Assembly (NCBI GenBank): GCA_030599585.1
Contig: JAUVNS010000002.1
Span: 320,001-384,000 of the forward strand
DNA length: 64,000 nucleotides
DNA from: Promethearchaeota archaeon
GTDB lineage: Archaea > Asgardarchaeota > Lokiarchaeia > Sigyniarchaeales > SOKP01
Direction: 5' to 3'
Part shown: one piece after another, positions 11,122-43,200 of the stretch
Position numbering within the stretch: the first letter of the stretch is position 1
How the letters are laid out: every line of letters begins with the position of its first letter
Notes under the pieces: model-generated
Told to the model about the DNA's origin: nothing
Databases searched by the model: none
The model's input: only the letters and a program-made list of their open reading frames with translations
Translations under genes and position numbers: made by a program

Positions 11122-12939
11122 ATGTTTATCGGGAAAGTTCAAAAAGGTTGGAAAGAGTTATATGAAGAAGTAATTCAAACGGGGAAATGTGTATACTGTG
11201 GAGCTTGTGGGGCATTCTGTGCCAACATTCTATTTGATAAAGAAAAGGAGATCCCAATAGAAGATGGGTCCTGTAAAGATATAAACACATGTAGAGATGG
11301 TTACGGACTTTGCTATAATCTCTGTCCAAAAACGGAAACTGAGACGATTCCTTTGTCATTATTGGACAATTGGGTTTTTGGAAAGAAACGCGATAAGATT
11401 CTTGGACATTATCTCAAAATTGTTTCAATTAAGCTAACAGATAAAGCAAGAAAAAGCATACCAGCTAAAGCGGGACCTTTAACAGGACTATTATGGTTGG
11501 CTATGGAAAACGGTTTAGTCGACTCCTCTATTATTACTGATAAAGACGATAACTTTAGACCTCTCCCTATGATCGCCCAGAATTCACAAGATATATTCAA
11601 AGGAGTAGGGTATAAACCAAGTCAAGGTCCTTTACTCTCACTTTTAGGAGATGCTATTAATAAAGAAAGCGTAGATATTGCTGTAGTAGGGACTCCTTGC
11701 CAAATTCAAGCTCTAAGAAAGCTACAGAACCACCCCGCATTTGATTACGAAGCATACGATTTAGTATCGCTTGCTATTGGGACTTTTTGCTTCGGAACTT
11801 ATTACAACCAATTATTAGAAATGGTTTTTGAGGAATTTGGGGTTAAATCAAGTGAAATAAATAAAATAGACACCGATAAAGACAACTTTAAGGTGAAAAT
11901 TATTAGTAATTCTACTGTTAAAGAAATACCACTAAATTATTTATACGAAAAAGCAATAAGAAAAGCTTGTTTTTCCTGTTCAGATTACACAGCTTCCTTT
12001 GCGGATTTATCAATTGGAAAATTTGGCAGTAAAGACGGTTGGAATACGCTAATTGTAAGAACAGAAAGAGGAAAACAAGTTTATGATTTAGCCATTGAAC
12101 AAGGGTTCATCAAAACAATACCATTAGAACACGATAAGAAAGAACTTATTTTGGATTTAACCAGAAATAAAACTGATATAGTCAAGATAGAATCAATAAC
12201 TGAACTTTCCCCCGAAATCAAAAGTTTTATGGTTAGAAACGCGAGGATTGCAGGCGCTTACAAACCGGGGATGTTTGTTATTTTATGGCTTCCCGATGTT
12301 GACTTCTTACCAATGTCCATCTCGAGCATAAACGAAGACCTTATCGAAATAACCGTTAAAAAAATAGGAGAGGGAACCTCCAAATTATTTGATCTAACTA
12401 AAGGAGACGCAATTGGAATTAGAGGTCCTTTTGGGAATTCGTTTAGTTACGAGGAATCGAAAAATATTCTTGTCGTAGGAGGAGGGATGGGAATCGCAGC
12501 CTTAACAACATTAATAGAAACTCTTAAACAAAACAAAGCAAACGTACAAGTAGCAATTGGAGCTAAAGATGAAGATTCGTTAATATTCGCTGAGAGACTG
12601 TTGAAATTGATTCCAAATACGATGTGTACTACTGATGACGGATCTTTTGGTAAGAAATGCGTCGTAACTGATCCCGTAGAAGATCTAATTAATAAAAAAC
12701 ACTTCGATTTGATTGTTACATGTGGTCCTGAAATTATGATGAAAAAAGTTCTTGAACTAGCAGAATCAAAGAATATTGAACTTCAAGCCAGCTTGGAACG
12801 AAAAATGAAATGTGGTGTAGGTTTATGTGGCTCTTGCTGCGTAGGAGTAGAGAATAATATAACCATTTGTAAAGATGGACCCGTGTTTAATTCAGATCAA
12901 TTAAAAAATTATCCGAAATTTGGAACTTATTCTAAATAA
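11122..12939 (+). CDS. Fusion of FrhB-family (F420 hydrogenase/dehydrogenase beta) and PyrK/NfnA-like FAD/NAD/[2Fe-2S] electron-transfer subunit
   Basis: N-part: CVYCGACGAFC, LCYNLCP, VGTPCQ, IGTFC, ACFSCSDY, ADLSIG. C-part: RGPFG, VGGGMG, TDDGS, CGPEIMM, SLERKMKCGVGLCGSC...CKDGPVF. Confidence 0.88.
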   Translation: MFIGKVQKGWKELYEEVIQTGKCVYCGACGAFCANILFDKEKEIPIEDGSCKDINTCRDGYGLCYNLCPKTETETIPLSLLDNWVFGKKRDKILGHYLKIVSIKLTDKARKSIPAKAGPLTGLLWLAMENGLVDSSIITDKDDNFRPLPMIAQNSQDIFKGVGYKPSQGPLLSLLGDAINKESVDIAVVGTPCQIQALRKLQNHPAFDYEAYDLVSLAIGTFCFGTYYNQLLEMVFEEFGVKSSEINKIDTDKDNFKVKIISNSTVKEIPLNYLYEKAIRKACFSCSDYTASFADLSIGKFGSKDGWNTLIVRTERGKQVYDLAIEQGFIKTIPLEHDKKELILDLTRNKTDIVKIESITELSPEIKSFMVRNARIAGAYKPGMFVILWLPDVDFLPMSISSINEDLIEITVKKIGEGTSKLFDLTKGDAIGIRGPFGNSFSYEESKNILVVGGGMGIAALTTLIETLKQNKANVQVAIGAKDEDSLIFAERLLKLIPNTMCTTDDGSFGKKCVVTDPVEDLINKKHFDLIVTCGPEIMMKKVLELAESKNIELQASLERKMKCGVGLCGSCCVGVENNITICKDGPVFNSDQLKNYPKFGTYSK

Positions 12940-13784
12940 TTAGTTTTCTCGGGAATCCCATTCGAGCAGGAAACTCCCACTTGACATAATCCACATCCAT
13001 AAATGTTAATTCCATAATTTTTTTTTATATATGGAATGGTTCCCGTAACGTGGTTGGAGCATATAATTTTATCGTGGCGGTTTTCGGAAGTTATTGCGTT
13101 AACTGGGCATCGGTCGATACAATCTCCACAATTATTACAATATTTGTAGGGATCTGAAGGTCTCTTGGCAGCGTCAGAGGGTAAACTATAATCAACAATT
13201 ATACTTCCACACCTCATTGCTTTACCCCTTGAGTTAATAAAACCATCGGATAAACCAAACGACCCTAAACCAGACGCAAAGCAGCAATGTCTGTGAGACC
13301 AGTTAGAAACCCAGATCTTACGGTTGATTTTAAATAAGGGCTTTTCCTGAGTAGGTGCCATTGCTTTTATTCCTAACTTTTTTAACTCGTCAATTAAATG
13401 TGTTTGAGCTTTCACATTTGCTTGTTCTCCGAATAATCGCGTATTCGCCCATCTTTCTGAAGGATAAACTTTAGAATATTCAAAATTCTCTTCCTTGGTT
13501 CTCTTGTTTATCGGGAGGATGTAGGTCACTACGCTTAGATTTTCGGTTGAGAGAGGTATGCCATTTTTTTCGCAATACCACGAGTAAGCTTCTATTGGTG
13601 TGAGATAAAATTCTCCTATAATATTCTTATATTCGCTAAAAATGGGATCGTCTCCAGAAACAAACCCAACAATTACATCAGGTTCAAAAATGAGAGAACT
13701 GTCCACCATTTTCATCTTATTACTTTCGTCACTTTCTAGGAAACTATTTATCTTTTCAACGAACCAATCTTTATTTATCCCCAT
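12927..13784 (-). CDS. Epoxyqueuosine reductase (QueG)-like 4Fe-4S protein
   Basis: WSHRH...SGLG.FG, CNNCGDCIDRCPVNAI, CGLCQVGVSC; convergent 13-nt overlap with the previous gene. Confidence 0.75.
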   Translation of the reverse strand: MGINKDWFVEKINSFLESDESNKMKMVDSSLIFEPDVIVGFVSGDDPIFSEYKNIIGEFYLTPIEAYSWYCEKNGIPLSTENLSVVTYILPINKRTKEENFEYSKVYPSERWANTRLFGEQANVKAQTHLIDELKKLGIKAMAPTQEKPLFKINRKIWVSNWSHRHCCFASGLGSFGLSDGFINSRGKAMRCGSIIVDYSLPSDAAKRPSDPYKYCNNCGDCIDRCPVNAITSENRHDKIICSNHVTGTIPYIKKNYGINIYGCGLCQVGVSCSNGIPEKTNYLE

Positions 13785-36337: not shown

Positions 36338-37198
36338 TCATATAATAGTAATAGAATCTTTTATTAAAGCGTCTGGAATTGATATTAAAGGGTTTCCTTT
36401 TAATTGTAATTGATTTAATAATTTTAACTCGACGATAGAGCTTGGTAATTCTTTTAACTTATTCCCCCCCAATTTCAGAGTACCCAACGATTTCATCTTT
36501 CCAATTGTGGTGGGTAATTGTTCCAAACAATTATTTGATAAGCAAAAGTAGCTCAAGTTTTTGAGATTTCCAACCGACTCAGGTATTGATTTCAACCGAT
36601 TGTTTCTTAGTGTTGTTTCAGTTAAACCCTCGAGCCTGCCGAAACCTTCAGGCAGTTTTTCCAACTTATTGTTCTTCAAGTAAAAGGTTTTTAGAGATTT
36701 TAGTTCCCCTATTGCCTCAGGTAGCGCTTTAAGACGATTACTGGACAAAGCTAAATGGTGAAGATTTATTAAACATCCAACTGAACTCGGTATTGAAACG
36801 ATGTTGTTTTCGGCCAAATTTAGGCTATGCAGTGAGGTGACTTTTGTTAGAGGTTCAGGAAAAACTCTTAACCTGTTACCGGCTATACTGAGAACTTCTA
36901 AGAATTTCAGTTTTTCGATTGCAATGGGGATAATTCCGATTGCATTTCTATCTAAATCTAATTCTCTTAACTTTGAAAACTTCCAAACAACAAGAGGAAT
37001 TGAGGATAACCGACATGATACCAAACTAAGCTCCTTGATATTCCCGCCTTCAATCTCGAGGAAGATGCGACTCGAATTACCGTCTCGCTTTTTTTCGAAA
37101 TTATTGCTTATCAAATTGTCTAATTCCAAAAGGTCATAGTATTCTTGCGAACTTAACCGCTCTTTACCCTCAAAATCTAAATCTCTTATGTTTTTCAT
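36338..37198 (-). CDS. Leucine-rich repeat protein (about 9-10 x 23-aa LRR)
   Basis: Repeats of LxxLxLxxNxLxxLPxxIGxL. Confidence 0.93.
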   Translation of the reverse strand: MKNIRDLDFEGKERLSSQEYYDLLELDNLISNNFEKKRDGNSSRIFLEIEGGNIKELSLVSCRLSSIPLVVWKFSKLRELDLDRNAIGIIPIAIEKLKFLEVLSIAGNRLRVFPEPLTKVTSLHSLNLAENNIVSIPSSVGCLINLHHLALSSNRLKALPEAIGELKSLKTFYLKNNKLEKLPEGFGRLEGLTETTLRNNRLKSIPESVGNLKNLSYFCLSNNCLEQLPTTIGKMKSLGTLKLGGNKLKELPSSIVELKLLNQLQLKGNPLISIPDALIKDSITII

Positions 37199-37276
37199 AG
37201 GTAAATAAAAAAAAGTAATTTATGATAATTTAATTATAGCTGTGCCAAAATTTAATAATTTGCGATTTTGGTGTTT

Positions 37277-40200
37277 TCACATCAAACCTCGACTTTCTAA
37301 TTTTTGTCTTATGTCTTTTATGATGGAAGTGACCCAGTCTTCTGTAATCCATTTCTTATCGATCATCTGTTGAATAGTGTAAGTCTCCCCTCCATGGTTC
37401 ATCTTAAGAAAATCTACCTTTGAAGTATCGACTACCCACTTCCCGTTCTCAAACACATATCTATTAGGGCCTTTATAGGAATATGCTATTCTGTCGTTAT
37501 TTTCCCATTCGTTGACAAATTCTATAAGGCGTTCTATATAGAGATCTTGAGCGGATTGTTCCCAGTACGATGGCGGCCTTGCAGCTTGGAAATCATTGCG
37601 CATCATACGCATTCGAGAATAATAATCTAGATTTTTCCTCGGTTCCAAGCTTGTGAATTTGTAATGCAAATCCCCCATCATAATAAGATCCATTACGTCG
37701 TTTACCGTTTTATCGAAGTCAATGTGATGTCTAAATTTATTATTTTCGACATCATAGTTTTGGATTCCCTCTCCACGCCGCCCAGCTGGTAATAAACCTC
37801 CTTGATAAAGGAGTAATTCAACCCAATGCTTAGCTATAGTTGCTACTTTATAAAAATCGTCATGATAATCAACTTTTGTAGAATCAAGCAATTTTGGTTC
37901 ATATCTAAGGTAAATATCATGAACCCCAGGATAATTTCTTTGATTGTCGGCATAAAAATCTCTAAAAGTTTTTTGCATAAGTATAGCTTGACCTTTCCTA
38001 ATAGATTTGCTCAAGTCTGATACGAAATCTTCGAGGTTGTTAACTACACCCATATTATTTATATTCTTAACTTGTCCAGAAAGATATGAACTAGTTGTAG
38101 ACGCTACCGTTCCTAATCCAATTCTATTATTGATCTCTGATACATCTAAGTATATCGATCCATGATATATATCAGATAGATGCCAACTAGCAAGCAACAT
38201 TACTTTTTGAAGAGGTTTGACTTCTTCATTAACAAGAAAACTGTTAGAAGCGCAGTATCTATTAATGGCTAATAAGGCTTCTTGAACTGATCTAGCTACT
38301 AACTTAGATTCTATACTATCTGAAATCCTAGATTCGCCCAAATTCTCTAACATAAATTCAGCAGACGATTTCCTGTATAAACCGTAAATCATTCTGAGTA
38401 AATGTTCGGTTTTGACTACGCGCCCTAGTACTTGGGATCTTGAAAAAAGTCCGAAAAATTCGTTTAACCTGTTAATCGAAGGCCCGTGACCGTCCCTATT
38501 GGCAGGATCATGCTGGATTGCAAGCCTAAGATCCCCTAATAGTTTATCTACGTCAGGATTTTGATTCTGTAAGCCAATTTGTCTTCTATAATTCATTAAT
38601 AATTCTTTAAATGCTTTCTTTGTTTCCTCTGTAAATTGTGGATCTTGATCTACACTAAATATCCATTTGTAAAGCTGGTTATCAGTCCATAAGATGTTTA
38701 CTCCGTTCTCTAAAGACAAGCGGGTAGTTCTAAATGCATCTCGACGTTGATTCAATGCTATAGCAAGCGGTCGCTCCTCAGTAATGCTTAAAATGTTTTT
38801 AATATCATTGAGTAAGATGTTCGTAGGATGATCTTCCCAATTTTCGTAACTATGGAAGTAATCAATAGTAACAGCCACTTCCGCTACGTAAATTTTACTG
38901 TCGATGTTATGATGGTTTTCTTCTAGCCAATCTGCAAGATTAGTAACGCGGTCTACAGGAATGGAAATGAGTTGAAAATCATCGGAAATTATATACATCT
39001 TATAATTGCCGCTCACACCGAAATAAGTCAAAATCTCGTTTAATTTGTCTAAAGTGCTCATATCTGCTCTAAAAGCGTTCTGAACTAAAGAACGAGAGGC
39101 TTGGCTCTTTTTATGAATTAACACAAAATTGGGATCGTAGAATTCTAATCCGAACATATCTAAGAATCGCAAATTTGTAACCCCTTCTTTAGCAAGTGCG
39201 TCTTTAATGATTTGAATTGTCTCTTTTTCTGCTTTTTGGACTCCAATCTTATTGTAATTTTTCTGGATTTGTCTAAATAGTTCTTTATATCCTCTAAATC
39301 TCTCTTCTTTTAATAGATACTTCTCGATCCATTCGTTAAAATATGGATCAAAGGCAAGTGTGTTAAACTTGTTAGCGAGATTTTCTTTTTGAGTTCTACT
39401 ATCGGGATTAATCTGACGAAGAGCAGTAACCGATGGAATGTTTTCTTTATTGGAGCCTTCTTGCGGTGCCTTAAATAGCTCGTGAAGGGCTTGAGGATCA
39501 ACTTCCGAGGGTTGCTTTGTTTCTTGTCCAAAGTTTATGGTGTCAATATCTCCGACAATACTTATTAGGTTCTTTTTTCTTCTGTTGTGTCGCCACGACT
39601 TGAGATTAGCCATGGAAAGAGGCGACGCTTTTATTGAGCTGCCGACCATTTTCTTCAGACCGGAGAGCGCAGCGAAACTGAAGGTGCCGAAAAAGACGGC
39701 TGGAAGCGTCATAAACAACCCTTTAAGGAAGTTGCTTTCTAACAGCTTGCCCAACGAGCCCTTATTTTCTGCTGCTTCTTGCATTGCTTTCTGTTTTTGT
39801 TCGAAATCGGAGTTTATTTGCTGTTGAATCTCTGTCATTGACTGACCCGAAACGAGACCTTGTATAAGAGTAATTACGCTTTTTGAACTTATTGGAGCGC
39901 CTAGAACTAACTGGCCCATGGCTCCTTTTACTTCTCTGGCGGAGGTTGATAACGAAGACAACCAGAATCCTAAGTCGTCAGAGCCGCCTAATATACTTAC
40001 GACGTTTTCGATTAGTGCTTCTCTAAATCCGTCTTGAATTATTTCTTCGAATACTTCTTGTATTGCACCTTTAACCGCACCTGTAAGACCTCCAAGAAGC
40101 GATTTTGATTGCTTTGCAATAAGCATCGCAACGCCTTTAGCTCCTGCCTCCGACGCTAATTTGCCTACGGCTGCTTGAGCCGCCCAAGAACCAAAATACG

Positions 40201-43200
40201 CTAAGGGAGCGCTTATTAACGTAGACCAGAACGTTAGAGTCTCCGTATAGGAAATCTCTGAAATCATATTAGCACTAATTTCTGCGAATGTATACTGACT
40301 GAAATAGTCCATAATGGTGTAAGAAGTAGCTTGAGCTAAAGCAAGTCGACTGGTTTCGTCGGTGGTGTCGGGAATAAATCTTTCGAATTCGATTCGAATT
40401 TTGTAGAATATAGTCTCATCGACCAATTTGCTAGCCCACGATTGAGCCAAGAAGTCTTCGAATCCTGAATATTTTTCCGAAACGAGCGCTTCTATAGACT
40501 TAGTAAAGTATAGATTACCTCCATCGACCGTGTAGTCAGAATCGTTAACTAGTATGTCTTGAGCAAAATAATCGTTTAGGTGAACTTCTTCTTGAACAAC
40601 GTCGATAAACACGGACGTAATGTTGTATTCGAAACCGTTATCGTTAAGAGGAACTTTCGCTCCATACAGAGCCGATTCTACGTCGTCCATGGCATAAGCG
40701 TTAATCCCAGAAGTCTTATCGTAATCCTTACATCGAACGGTCACAGTAAGTTTTCCTAGCGCAGGTTGGATTTGGTCGAATCGAGCTTGGCTTAGAACCA
40801 CGGGTCGATACAAAATCGATAGCGGTAAGATAGTTTCTTGGATGGTGCTATTGATAAATTCGTAGCTCGGTGCTCCGTCTATGCAATTAGGCTTTATAGC
40901 ATCGAACGATCCTCCTGATTTTTCCATGACGATGGTCTCAAGCGCGCCTAAGGTGTTGAACGAGTGTAAGTTGTAATCGTTAAACAAGAATTCGGTGTTG
41001 TGGTAAGTGTAAAATGGTTTGGTGTTGTAATAAGGGAGCTCGCTTGTCATAAGTAAATAATCTAAATTGATGTCATCGTAATCGAGGGCGGTGTAAGAAT
41101 CAGGATTGGAACCTCCCATGTCCCAAATGTTTTCCCATAATAAATCTAAAAATCCTCCAAAAGAGTTCCATATTCGAAGTGGATTTGGAGGACTTACTAA
41201 CAACTGCCCGGTATAAGTAGTCCCAGAATCCTTGCCACTCACGGTAGCGTAATATCCTCCTGGATGAGCTAATAGCGCTGCTGCCATCGTGTCTTGAAGA
41301 ACTCTATCAAAAAGATTTTTTTCGTTGAGCGAAACCGGTTCTTGTGGTCCGCTTGAACTTGGGTAAAATGTGTCGGCCCGTTCTATGGATTGTGCCATGT
41401 GAAGTTTTCGATCGATGTTAAATTTTGTCATTAAAGTATATATAACAAGGTAAGTTAGCGTTCCCGCAGCTCGACCCGCAGCCTCTCCCGCTGCAATAGC
41501 TGCAAGAGTTCCTACGCCTAATGTCGCCGCTATACCAGCAGCAGTGACCATCGACGCAACTATAGCTGCTACTACCGCGCTCGCAATAGCCGCAGTTGTT
41601 GTCATAAAGACTTGTTCTATAATATCACCTACTAATTGTTCTCTGTAAGTCTCCCACGCTCTTGCGTAAGATTTGTGTCTAATTTCGTAAAATAACTCGG
41701 TAAATTTAGGGTTTTTTTGGCTCGTTTCAGAAGTTTTGTAAATTTCGAAGATTTGATCTTTTGGTTTGTATTCTTTCCAGAATTTATCGTCTTCGTTTAA
41801 AATATCGAATAACAAATCGTTATTTTTTAAATTGTCGAAGTTATAAATCCAATCAGAACCAAACATTTCAGTCTTTCTTCCGAGGTTGCTAAAATCGGTA
41901 ATTGTGTTTTCTACTTGATCTAACTTTTCGTAGGGAGCAAAATCGTGTATGCCGTCGTAGTTCATTCCTATCGATATTACGTCGTATTTAGGAATTACTA
42001 ATCTGCTTACCGTGTATAAGTTGCCAACTATGTACACTGTCTCGTAATAACCGTTAAGATCTGAATCTATGAAAAAGTAGCTACCTGAAGTTTTAGCAGA
42101 TCCGTCCAAAAACGCGTCTTTATCAGAAGTGTAATAAACTTGACCGTCTGCCGGAGTGACCATAGCTCCAGTCACCTCAAATTCAACCCAACCGTCGTTC
42201 TCTACGCTAGATTTAGATATTTTACCGAAATCGTTGTATAACGAATACCTATTTGGGATGCGAAGAATAATAGTCTTTTCGAAATAATTTGTGGAATAAG
42301 AAATTTCTCCATCTTCGTCAAATACTTGAAGAGAGTCGTATTTTATTGGAACGTTGTCTGAACTCCAAGTTGGACCCGTCCAAGTGATGTTTGCGGGACT
42401 CGCGTAAGGAAGTTCAGGATCGAAAATTATTTGTGATTGGGCGTTAGTGTCGATGTTAGTGACCGAGTGTTGATTGGAAACATCTTCAAAGAACCCTTCG
42501 ACGCTTTCAACTTCGTTGTTTTTAAAGTCGTCCTTGTAAACCCTTTGTTCTTCAACCTCTCCTTCGTTATAATCAATAAAGGTTAAAGTCGAATATTCAA
42601 CGGTGTCTACGTACGAAGTAGTGACATTTTCAGTAAATTTTCTATAAGTTGTGCTCAAAGTAGGAGCGTTCATGATGGCCCCAAGGTTTGCCGTGCTAAA
42701 ATCGTTAGAATCGAGGTGTTCTTTCGTAAGAAATTCGTTAAATACAAAATCGTCTTTTGATCCAAACAAGGAAGCGGCGCTTTTCATTATATATTCGCCT
42801 AAAAAGATTAATACGTTCTGAAGTTTTGCAGCGAGTATTGTTTCTTTAAATTCCGTTACCTCGTAATATATGCTAACTTCGGTAGTCTCAAAGTTGGTAG
42901 ATTCGTCTACCGTTCCGTCTCGGTCTTCGTCTACTTGCACGCTGTAGAAATTACTTTTAACGTGTTCTTCCTTGTTTATTTGCCTCTGCGTCGATTTCTG
43001 AGCCCAATAGTCAACATCTGGAAGCATCATCTTAGAAAGCGTGTAAAGCATTAACGGTATTATCAAGACTGATAATAATAGTTTGGCCATGTTAGGATCG
43101 TAATTGGCGAAAGTTTGATCGTCTACATCGAACCAATCTGTTCTTAGTTTTTCTTCTAAGTTTTTAGAGGCTTTTATCTCTCGATTCTCGAAATCTTGAA

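Follow-up and report, generated by a model that had tools for sequence, protein, structure and literature searches.

A giant protein of a Loki-type Asgard archaeon ends in an exchangeable cassette with a predicted HNH-fold domain: a candidate polymorphic-toxin-like effector

We analyzed a stretch of 64,000 nucleotides (the window, to whose numbering all coordinates refer) from a Promethearchaeota archaeon of the class Lokiarchaeia (GenBank assembly GCA_030599585.1, contig JAUVNS010000002.1, positions 320,001 to 384,000), whose genome is here called G000. A single minus-strand open reading frame (ORF) extends from position 37277 past the end of the window and comprises 13,858 codons on its contig (G000:C24). 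An earlier, sequence-only reading of this DNA had noticed a degenerate HNH-type nuclease motif and a compositional break near the 3′ end of this giant gene, and had proposed that a recombined effector cassette lies there. Hydropathy and composition divide the encoded protein into a K/R-rich (23%) N-terminal region of ~550 residues (amino acids 110 to 658), six to seven hydrophobic helices (659 to 906), an acidic, Tyr/Thr-rich body of ~11,000 residues, and a C-terminal membrane region with helices at residues 11918 to 11947, 12410 to 12460, and 13042 to 13067 and a weak one at ~12870 to 12910. The body sits between two membrane-associated regions, one N-terminal and one C-terminal. After the last helix comes a soluble tail of 792 residues (window 37280 to 39655), which sets the tail numbering used below. 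No Pfam family scored above threshold in the 8,907 giant residues encoded in the window, the sole subthreshold match being Big_3_2. Public relatives of the giant are all annotated as "hypothetical protein" and come from metagenome-assembled genomes of Promethearchaeota or Candidatus Lokiarchaeota and from Loki's Castle sediment. G000 encodes three giant ORFs in all (13,858 to 14,552 codons), the other two at G000:C23:9282-51002 (plus strand) and G000:C47:27050-70708 (minus strand). In each of the three, the C-terminal zone is free of sequons (N-x-S/T, the acceptor motif of N-glycosylation), and synonymous codon usage switches 750 to 1,185 codons before the stop.

The HNH-like motif, RHHIDFDK...DLIMMGDLHY (window 37661 to 37732, minus strand), lies inside the giant ORF and is no chance match. 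A phmmer search with the tail against 1.84 billion representative proteins returned 49 relatives, many of them contig fragments; the family alignment comprises 21 of these. Across the 21 relatives, G35, H58, H59, K64, H79, E86, Y93, F104, W113, and Y121 are invariant or at least 90% conserved. H58 and H59 correspond to tail residues 643 and 644 (window 37724 to 37729), and H79 corresponds to tail His664 (window 37664 to 37666). The family signature reads (R/Q)-H-H-x-x-(F/Y)-x-K ... (D/E/N/Q)-L-I-L-L-G-x-L-H, in which the spacing of D-L-I-L-L-G-x-L-H mirrors that of N-L-x-x-L-C-x-x-C-H in the HNH motif. The sequence-only reading had correctly seen Asp at the second (central) Asn position, which is occupied by D, E, N, or Q across the family; other residues at this position are known within the HNH superfamily (Zhang et al. 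2012, PMC3482391). It was mistaken in finding no clear final His, as His664 is present and conserved.

AlphaFold2, run on the family alignment, predicted a beta-beta-alpha unit with high confidence (predicted local distance difference test [pLDDT] = 91.7, predicted template modeling score = 0.88), with strands at model residues 57 to 59 (R-H-H) and 72 to 74 and a helix at 78 to 83 carrying His79. In an exhaustive VIA-align comparison with 48,161 representative PDB chains, HNH nucleases made up 11 of the 13 top matches. The best was Cap5 (7rwk_B; Z = 5.9, root mean square deviation [rmsd] = 2.7 Å over 86 amino acids, 16% identity), with IscB, two more Cap5 entries, EcoKMcrA, a retron HNH protein, the phage GVE2 HNH protein, ScoMcrA, and the Cas9 HNH domain also at the top of the list and PtuB, T4 endonuclease VII, Ref, and ZRANB3 lower down; all matches cover model residues ~10 to 125. 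A repeat structure search of the PDB with the same model returned only the Cas9 HNH domain (Z = 3.3). Each Z-score is modest; the case for an HNH fold is made by the predominance of HNH entries among the best-ranked matches together with the predicted topology and the conserved residues, and on these grounds we regard the fold as quite probable. By Pfam, PDB profile, and hhalign searches, the domain belongs to no described sequence family; a Pfam scan of the 21 relatives found no HNH family, PADLOC found no match in the tail or the neighboring genes, and the ESM Atlas yielded no usable match. The domain may be an active nuclease.

The compositional break, which had been placed near 39.4 kb, is real and appears in several layers. 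In sliding windows near 40,000 to 39,400, the Lys plus Arg (K+R) content rises from ~5% to ~12 to 14%, the net charge moves from −0.1 to ~0, the observed/expected (o/e) ratio of CpG falls from ~1.5 to ~1.0, and the GC content at third codon positions (GC3) falls from ~0.39 to ~0.30. Likelihood scans for a single change-point, evaluated against permutation nulls, located the K+R shift (5% to 13%) at giant residue 13019 (~39797; log-likelihood ratio [LLR] = 23.7, null maximum = 7.6) and a halving of codon-boundary CpG at residue 13070 (~39644; LLR = 13.2 versus 10.0), while the GC3 change-point at residue 13134 (~39452) was not significant (LLR = 7.0 versus 7.9). The choice between C and T at two-fold degenerate codons ending in a pyrimidine (NNY) served as a test independent of amino acid content. 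The C-ending fraction was 0.47 in the body, 0.57 in the membrane region, and 0.33 after the junction (Fisher p = 2.7e-4 versus the body), against 0.277 ± 0.08 for ORFs of the genome, and its change-point fell at codon 13108 (~39530; 0.52 to 0.33, LLR = 11.5, null maximum = 7.0). The change-points in K+R, CpG, and NNY choice thus span 39.80 to 39.53 kb. The other two G000 giants show the same NNY switch 954 to 1,185 codons before their stops. A purely amino acid or topology effect is rejected by this synonymous test. It is the body that is the genomic outlier (GC3 = 0.375 and CpG o/e = 1.46, compared with 0.273 ± 0.048 and 0.94 ± 0.21 for ORFs; 0.37 to 0.38 and ~1.43 across the three giant bodies), and the tail resembles ordinary genes (GC3 = 0.33, CpG o/e = 1.01). 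One mRNA holds two codon regimes, which fits a tail of different history; local selection could also produce them. Both a predicted beta-beta-alpha fold and a statistical change-point, the absence of which the sequence-only reading had named as grounds for abandoning its proposal, were found.

Close to the break lies a discrete junction at which giant homologues diverge. A LANKFN motif lies at window 39353 to 39379, ~50 nucleotides from the 39.4-kb position. The linker shared by the giant homologues ends in the consensus K-K-P-x-x-L-D ... N-P-N-P-K ... L-A-N-K-F-N, and unrelated tail types follow thereafter. Upstream, conservation is broad: of the 135 genomes of the family, 52 encode the 596 residues that precede the tail, and many of these copies belong to ORFs of 11,000 to 20,000 codons. 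The last hydrophobic helix, flanked by the K+R and CpG change-points, keeps the motif G-L/I-F-M-x-x-P-A/S-V/L-F/L-F/Y-G-S/T-F-S/T-F across giants with different tails, a conservation that exceeds the need of a generic membrane anchor. The HNH module, by comparison, was detected in 12 of 161 genomes of the class and in none of the other families among 400 genomes of the phylum; among the genomes searched, only G000 carries it on a full-length giant. When 18 homologous proteins were compared with the tail, similarity ended at discrete points, most often just past LANKFN: it stopped at tail residues ~100 to 106 in seven loci and at 137 to 144, 175 to 180, 251 to 274, or 329 in others, and it extended over the full length in two (G120:C66 and G125:C143). 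The closest relative of the body, in G130 (80% identity), bears a different tail type.

Recombination at this junction is suggested most directly by a pair of loci in one sister genome. G120:C66 is a 3′ fragment of 2,033 codons with an HNH-type tail and no giant body upstream. It is 88% identical over 1,348 amino acids to the full-length giant G120:C74, after which the similarity collapses at LANKFN; at the DNA level, identity is 80 to 98% until ~100 nucleotides before LANKF and ~40% from ~30 nucleotides after it. Similar short forms occur at G125:C143 (1,583 codons) and G130:C229 (1,833 codons). Smaller pieces were also found. At G125:C94, a 248-codon ORF consists of the HNH module alone (module C, tail residues 586 to 792) and is accompanied by a leucine-rich-repeat (LRR) gene; at G114:C246, a 5′-truncated module C that lacks the R-H-H strand stands next to an intact LRR gene; and G156 encodes stand-alone proteins of 603 to 671 residues that contain the module and have no hydrophobic helix. 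The loss of tail similarity at discrete points, together with the break between G120:C66 and G120:C74 at the motif, supports the proposal of a recombined-in cassette: the tail appears to be an exchangeable unit joined after a conserved junction motif.

Immediately downstream of the giant, an LRR gene encodes a protein in which we read no signal peptide or transmembrane helix. Full-length orthologues (63 to 66% identity) occur at only four loci in 42 genomes of the genus (G125:C143, G125:C94, G120:C66, and G114:C246), and these are exactly the loci of the genus that carry module C. In G156, more distant LRR genes are convergent to the stand-alone forms of 600 to 670 amino acids. Of the forms examined, the giant, short, and orphan ones have a cognate LRR gene next to the HNH module, as do four of five stand-alone copies. 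The 78-nucleotide spacer between the giant and the LRR gene (37199 to 37276) contains a TATA-like box, ctataattaaatt, and a run of nine T residues just before the LRR ATG; transcription of the LRR gene may start from a promoter of its own. A second LRR paralogue in G000 (G000:C9:321372-322319; 56% identity) is located directly downstream of a 558-amino-acid ORF with a K-L-D-G ligase-like motif and has no HNH module nearby. It could be an orphaned partner gene or have no connection with the module.

The tail is devoid of sequons. The 792 residues contain none, compared with 6.4 expected from shuffled sequences (P = 0.001), and the tails of the other two G000 giants also contain none (12.8 and 3.15 expected). 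Across 20 tails of all types (17,870 amino acids), a single sequon was observed against 124.3 ± 9.9 expected. Control motifs in the same 20 tails ranged from 0.70 to 1.07 of expectation (reversed sequon, 0.83; D-x-S/T, 0.77; Q-x-S/T, 0.98; N-S/T, 0.85; N-x-x-S/T, 1.07), and the nonglycosylatable N-P-S/T was enriched 1.86-fold. Ordinary nonmembrane ORFs of G000 contain 0.58 sequons per 100 amino acids, with 5 of 240 long ones having none; the N-terminal cytoplasmic region of the giant has 3 in 549 amino acids, its body has 1.48 per 100, and the LRR partners carry sequons at chance level. The sequon-free zone begins ~300 residues upstream of the last helix; in the two paralogues it takes up the final 1,927 and 1,764 residues. 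G000 encodes an STT3/AglB oligosaccharyltransferase. The only explanation we offer is that the C-terminal unit meets this external glycosylation enzyme and must stay glycan-free; the purge would therefore imply export without glycosylation.

Regarding the remainder of the cassette, the sequence-only reading had suggested that the ~500 residues before the motif hold further helical domains. An all-helical domain of ~300 residues is indeed predicted there, preceded by a three-helix unit and a beta-grasp domain (Table 1). These come from a second model, of tail residues 100 to 600 (pLDDT = 84.6), which comprises three helices, an alpha/beta domain, and ~300 all-helical residues. The best match of the beta-grasp domain was the FERM F1 domain 8gvl_A (Z = 10.2, rmsd = 2.0 over 78 amino acids), with 36 chains at Z ≥ 8 and Ras-association domains and ubiquitin-like proteins among the further matches. 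Foldseek searches of the PDB with this three-helix/beta-grasp/helical model returned nothing at E ≤ 0.001, and the helical domain had no match. A similar beta-grasp module is apparently common to several otherwise unrelated tail types, with similarity reaching tail residue ~250 to 274. One alternative tail (L063:670-3255, in G039:C91) has a weak Pfam match to ThiS, a beta-grasp family (E = 0.0016), consistent with recurring beta-grasp domains.

Table 1. Features of the giant gene's 3′ region and its neighbor (window coordinates)
Feature	Position	Strand	Basis
Leucine-rich-repeat gene, 286 amino acids, 78 nucleotides downstream of giant	36338-37198	-	LRR_8, E = 1.6e-31
Giant ORF, 3′ 8,907 codons plus stop	37277-64000	-	G000:C24:357277-398853
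Small C-terminal beta-sheet plus helix end-piece, conserved alongside HNH core	37280-37495	-	Alignment and model
Sequon-free zone, last 1,088 residues without N-x-S/T	37280-40543	-	Motif count
HNH-like (beta-beta-alpha-metal) core domain, tail amino acids 601-710, new sequence family	37526-37855	-	Model and alignment
Predicted beta-beta-alpha unit: R-H-H strand, D-L-I strand, helix with His664	37652-37732	-	AlphaFold2 model
All-helical domain, ~300 amino acids, tail amino acids 270-574	37934-38848	-	Model
Ubiquitin-like beta-grasp domain, tail amino acids 163-264	38864-39169	-	Model and structure search
Three-helix unit opening the cassette, tail amino acids 103-154	39194-39349	-	Model
Cassette junction INPDSR-x5-LANKFNTLA; consensus NPNPK...L-A-N-K-F-N	39353-39412	-	Alignment
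Linker, ~99 amino acids, common to giant homologues compared; contains NNY change-point	39359-39655	-	Alignment
Last hydrophobic helix (giant amino acids 13042-13067)	39656-39721	-	Hydropathy and alignment
Ala/Gly-rich hydrophobic stretch, ~50 amino acids, probably a helical hairpin	41477-41623	-	Hydropathy
First hydrophobic helix of the C-terminal membrane region (giant amino acids 11918-11947)	43013-43081	-	Hydropathy

By analogy, the anatomy of the locus matches the layout that defines polymorphic toxins: a carrier, a junction, a polymorphic tip, a downstream cognate gene, orphan modules, and a tip with a predicted nuclease fold. Our preferred interpretation, to which we assign a probability of roughly 0.55, is that the giant is a surface protein acting as an archaeal polymorphic-toxin-like effector whose delivered tip is countered by LRR immunity. 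The cassette (37280 to 39352, ~690 amino acids), joined after NPNPK...LANKFN, would consist of the three-helix, beta-grasp, helical, and HNH domains and the end-piece. The conserved giant body and the hydrophobic helices would present and translocate the tip, which would leave the cell unglycosylated and cut nucleic acid in a neighboring cell, and the cytoplasmic LRR protein would bind and block the same tip in kin cells. New tips would be acquired when the giant gene recombines with 3′ orphan modules, with which it has kilobases of upstream homology in common. In this scheme, nuclease activity, export, delivery, toxicity, and immunity are all putative. A narrower version, that Loki-type Asgard archaea own a contact-dependent delivery system in which the sequon-free C-terminal unit is exported unglycosylated and inserted into a neighbor, with tips shuffled via orphans and neutralized by LRR proteins, we put forward tentatively, and it is less likely to be right than wrong. 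The unit delivered in that version, conserved hydrophobic helices plus an exchangeable tip of ~600 to 1,600 residues, is to be taken just as tentatively.

Several results weigh against the toxin-like interpretation. Regarding the domain itself, every structural Z-score for the HNH core is below 8, and Foldseek searches of the PDB and BFVD with the HNH model returned nothing at E ≤ 0.001. Sequence-profile methods do not support the HNH assignment made by the sequence-only reading: a Pfam hmmscan of the tail at E ≤ 10 gave a chance TDH match alone and no HNH family, PDB searches with the single sequence and with a profile gave chance matches alone, and hhalign against 20 canonical PF01844 sequences from related genomes gave a probability of 0.5% (E = 0.12), albeit in the canonical register (HH on D-H, D-L-I-L-L-G on N-L-x-x-L-C, and L-H on C-H/N). 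The 14 alternative tails contain no Pfam toxin domain, apart from the ThiS match having no Pfam hit to report. Other LRR types follow other tail types, so the LRR may be a general partner fold. Orphan cassettes, for which the sequence-only reading had suggested a search, exist in the sister genomes G120, G125, and G114; within G000, tblastn found no second copy of any module of the tail, and the idea of orphan copies there was dropped. The stand-alone forms have neither a signal peptide nor a transmembrane helix, and we know of no archaeal machinery for delivering such a tip. Finally, with nine K/R and not one D/E among its first 30 residues, the tail of the G000 copy would be expected to face the cytoplasm. 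This charge argument carries little weight, since in 15 homologues the last helix has net positive flanks on either side (+36 ahead of it, +26 behind it) and the asymmetry is not conserved; we dropped positive-inside charges as a means of fixing the tail in the cytoplasm.

The K/R-rich start of the tail after a transmembrane helix in the G000 copy would suit a cis-acting effector, in which the tail never leaves the cytoplasmic side of the producer's membrane. An event outside the cell (attachment of a virus, damage to the envelope, or contact with a partner) would be sensed by the ectodomain of the giant, which would then license the membrane-tethered HNH nuclease. The role of the LRR protein would be that of an inhibitor or regulator, and the logic would be that of abortive infection or signaling, as in the HNH effectors of cyclic oligonucleotide-based antiphage signaling systems (CBASS). 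Such an arrangement accommodates the CBASS effector Cap5 as the nearest solved fold, the soluble stand-alone relatives without an export signal, the cytoplasmic LRR partner, and a tail whose amino acid and codon composition is like that of ordinary cytoplasmic genes. A permanently cytoplasmic domain, however, has no reason to lose its sequons totally, given that cytoplasmic ORFs and the N-terminal region are undepleted; searches turned up neither a sensor domain (SAVED or other) nor a PADLOC match, the positive-inside asymmetry is not conserved, and orphan modules with kilobases of upstream homology better fit replacement of tips. We consider a cis-acting effector unlikely.

Less probable still is a noncatalytic adaptor, in which the tail would be a variable cytoplasmic docking platform that links the giant to the LRR protein and other partners (e.g., GTPase- or cytoskeleton-linked ones) and the His-Me finger would be kept for metal-dependent structure or nucleic acid binding and not for cleavage. 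The resemblance of the beta-grasp domain to FERM F1 and Ras-association domains (Z up to 10.2), the occurrence of LRR partners behind several unrelated tail types, the lack of recognized enzyme domains in the alternative tails, and the replaced central Asn of the HNH motif are in keeping with it. Yet the positions relevant to catalysis (HH, the helix His, and the Lys) are the most conserved in the family, the truncated orphan that retains its LRR gene and the one-to-one linkage of LRR gene and module follow a toxin/immunity logic, and the sequon purge is left unexplained. That nothing special is present, the motif being due to chance and the break marking the passage from an acidic extracellular body to the differently composed end of an anciently contiguous gene, we regard as very improbable. 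Much of the shift in base composition does track amino acid usage (windows of a synonymous G-statistic reach z = 1 to 3 overall), the GC3 change-point alone is not significant, and sequence searches find no HNH family; against this stand the conservation of the motif in 21 relatives within a high-confidence predicted beta-beta-alpha unit, a significant NNY change-point in all three G000 giants, and tails that are nonhomologous after a shared junction.

Giant genes of Asgard archaea have been noted in the literature without an assigned function (PMC8813620; bioRxiv 10.1101/2023.11.21.568195). The locus gives such proteins a testable anatomy, with a conserved carrier, a defined junction, and exchangeable tips with cognate partners, and it adds a new putative HNH-fold family that is confined to a single family of the phylum. 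The loss of sequons across tail types is a simple sequence signature that predicts that the tails cross a membrane. If delivery between cells is true, it would bear on how syntrophic archaea interact with kin and partners; if that delivery is contact dependent, it would mean that the prokaryotes most closely related to eukaryotes transfer proteins between cells by a new route.

Literature searches found no description of this system. We know of no bacterial counterpart to its carrier of ~14,000 residues with hydrophobic helices at both ends, to its multidomain tip of ~690 residues, or to its systematic sequon avoidance. Parts of the layout are familiar from the colicin E7 and E9 DNases, multidomain proteins with a C-terminal HH...H His-metal finger tip and a linked downstream immunity gene (Im7/Im9). 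The Im7/Im9 immunity fold is a four-helix bundle, compared with the LRR here, and carrier, host, and delivery route differ as well; E7 and E9 are absent among the structural matches listed for the HNH core. CBASS Cap5 (HNH-SAVED; PDB 7rwk) is the best of those matches at a modest Z of 5.9, but the tail has no SAVED domain, no cyclase neighbor (by Pfam and PADLOC, in the tail and neighboring genes), and no sequence-level relation to it.

The closest likeness in overall design is to the bacterial polymorphic toxins (CdiA-CT/CdiI, Rhs, and MafB), which share a large surface protein, a hypervariable tip after a short junction motif, a small cognate downstream gene, orphan 3′ modules with upstream homology, and a nuclease-fold tip. 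The present locus differs from these in its archaeal host, in a carrier of ~14,000 amino acids without a known trafficking domain (no Pfam match), and in a multidomain tip of ~690 amino acids that follows three to five hydrophobic helices; its HNH domain matches no Pfam Tox-HNH family, and export, toxicity, and immunity are here putative. LRR proteins are listed among the immunity folds of polymorphic toxin systems, which include many HNH/EndoVII-fold toxin variants and are, in their classical form, reported to be rare in archaea (Zhang et al. 2012, PMC3482391). Among archaea, the VARTIG modules of Thermococcales consist of a large surface-type protein with a recombining hypervariable C terminus and variable downstream genes, and their authors also liken them to polymorphic toxin systems (Makarova et al. 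2021, PMC8416519). Unlike the tail described here, VARTIG proteins are far smaller and vary an Ig domain, with no nuclease tip or LRR partner. In layout, VARTIG is the nearest archaeal analogue of the giant and its exchangeable tip.

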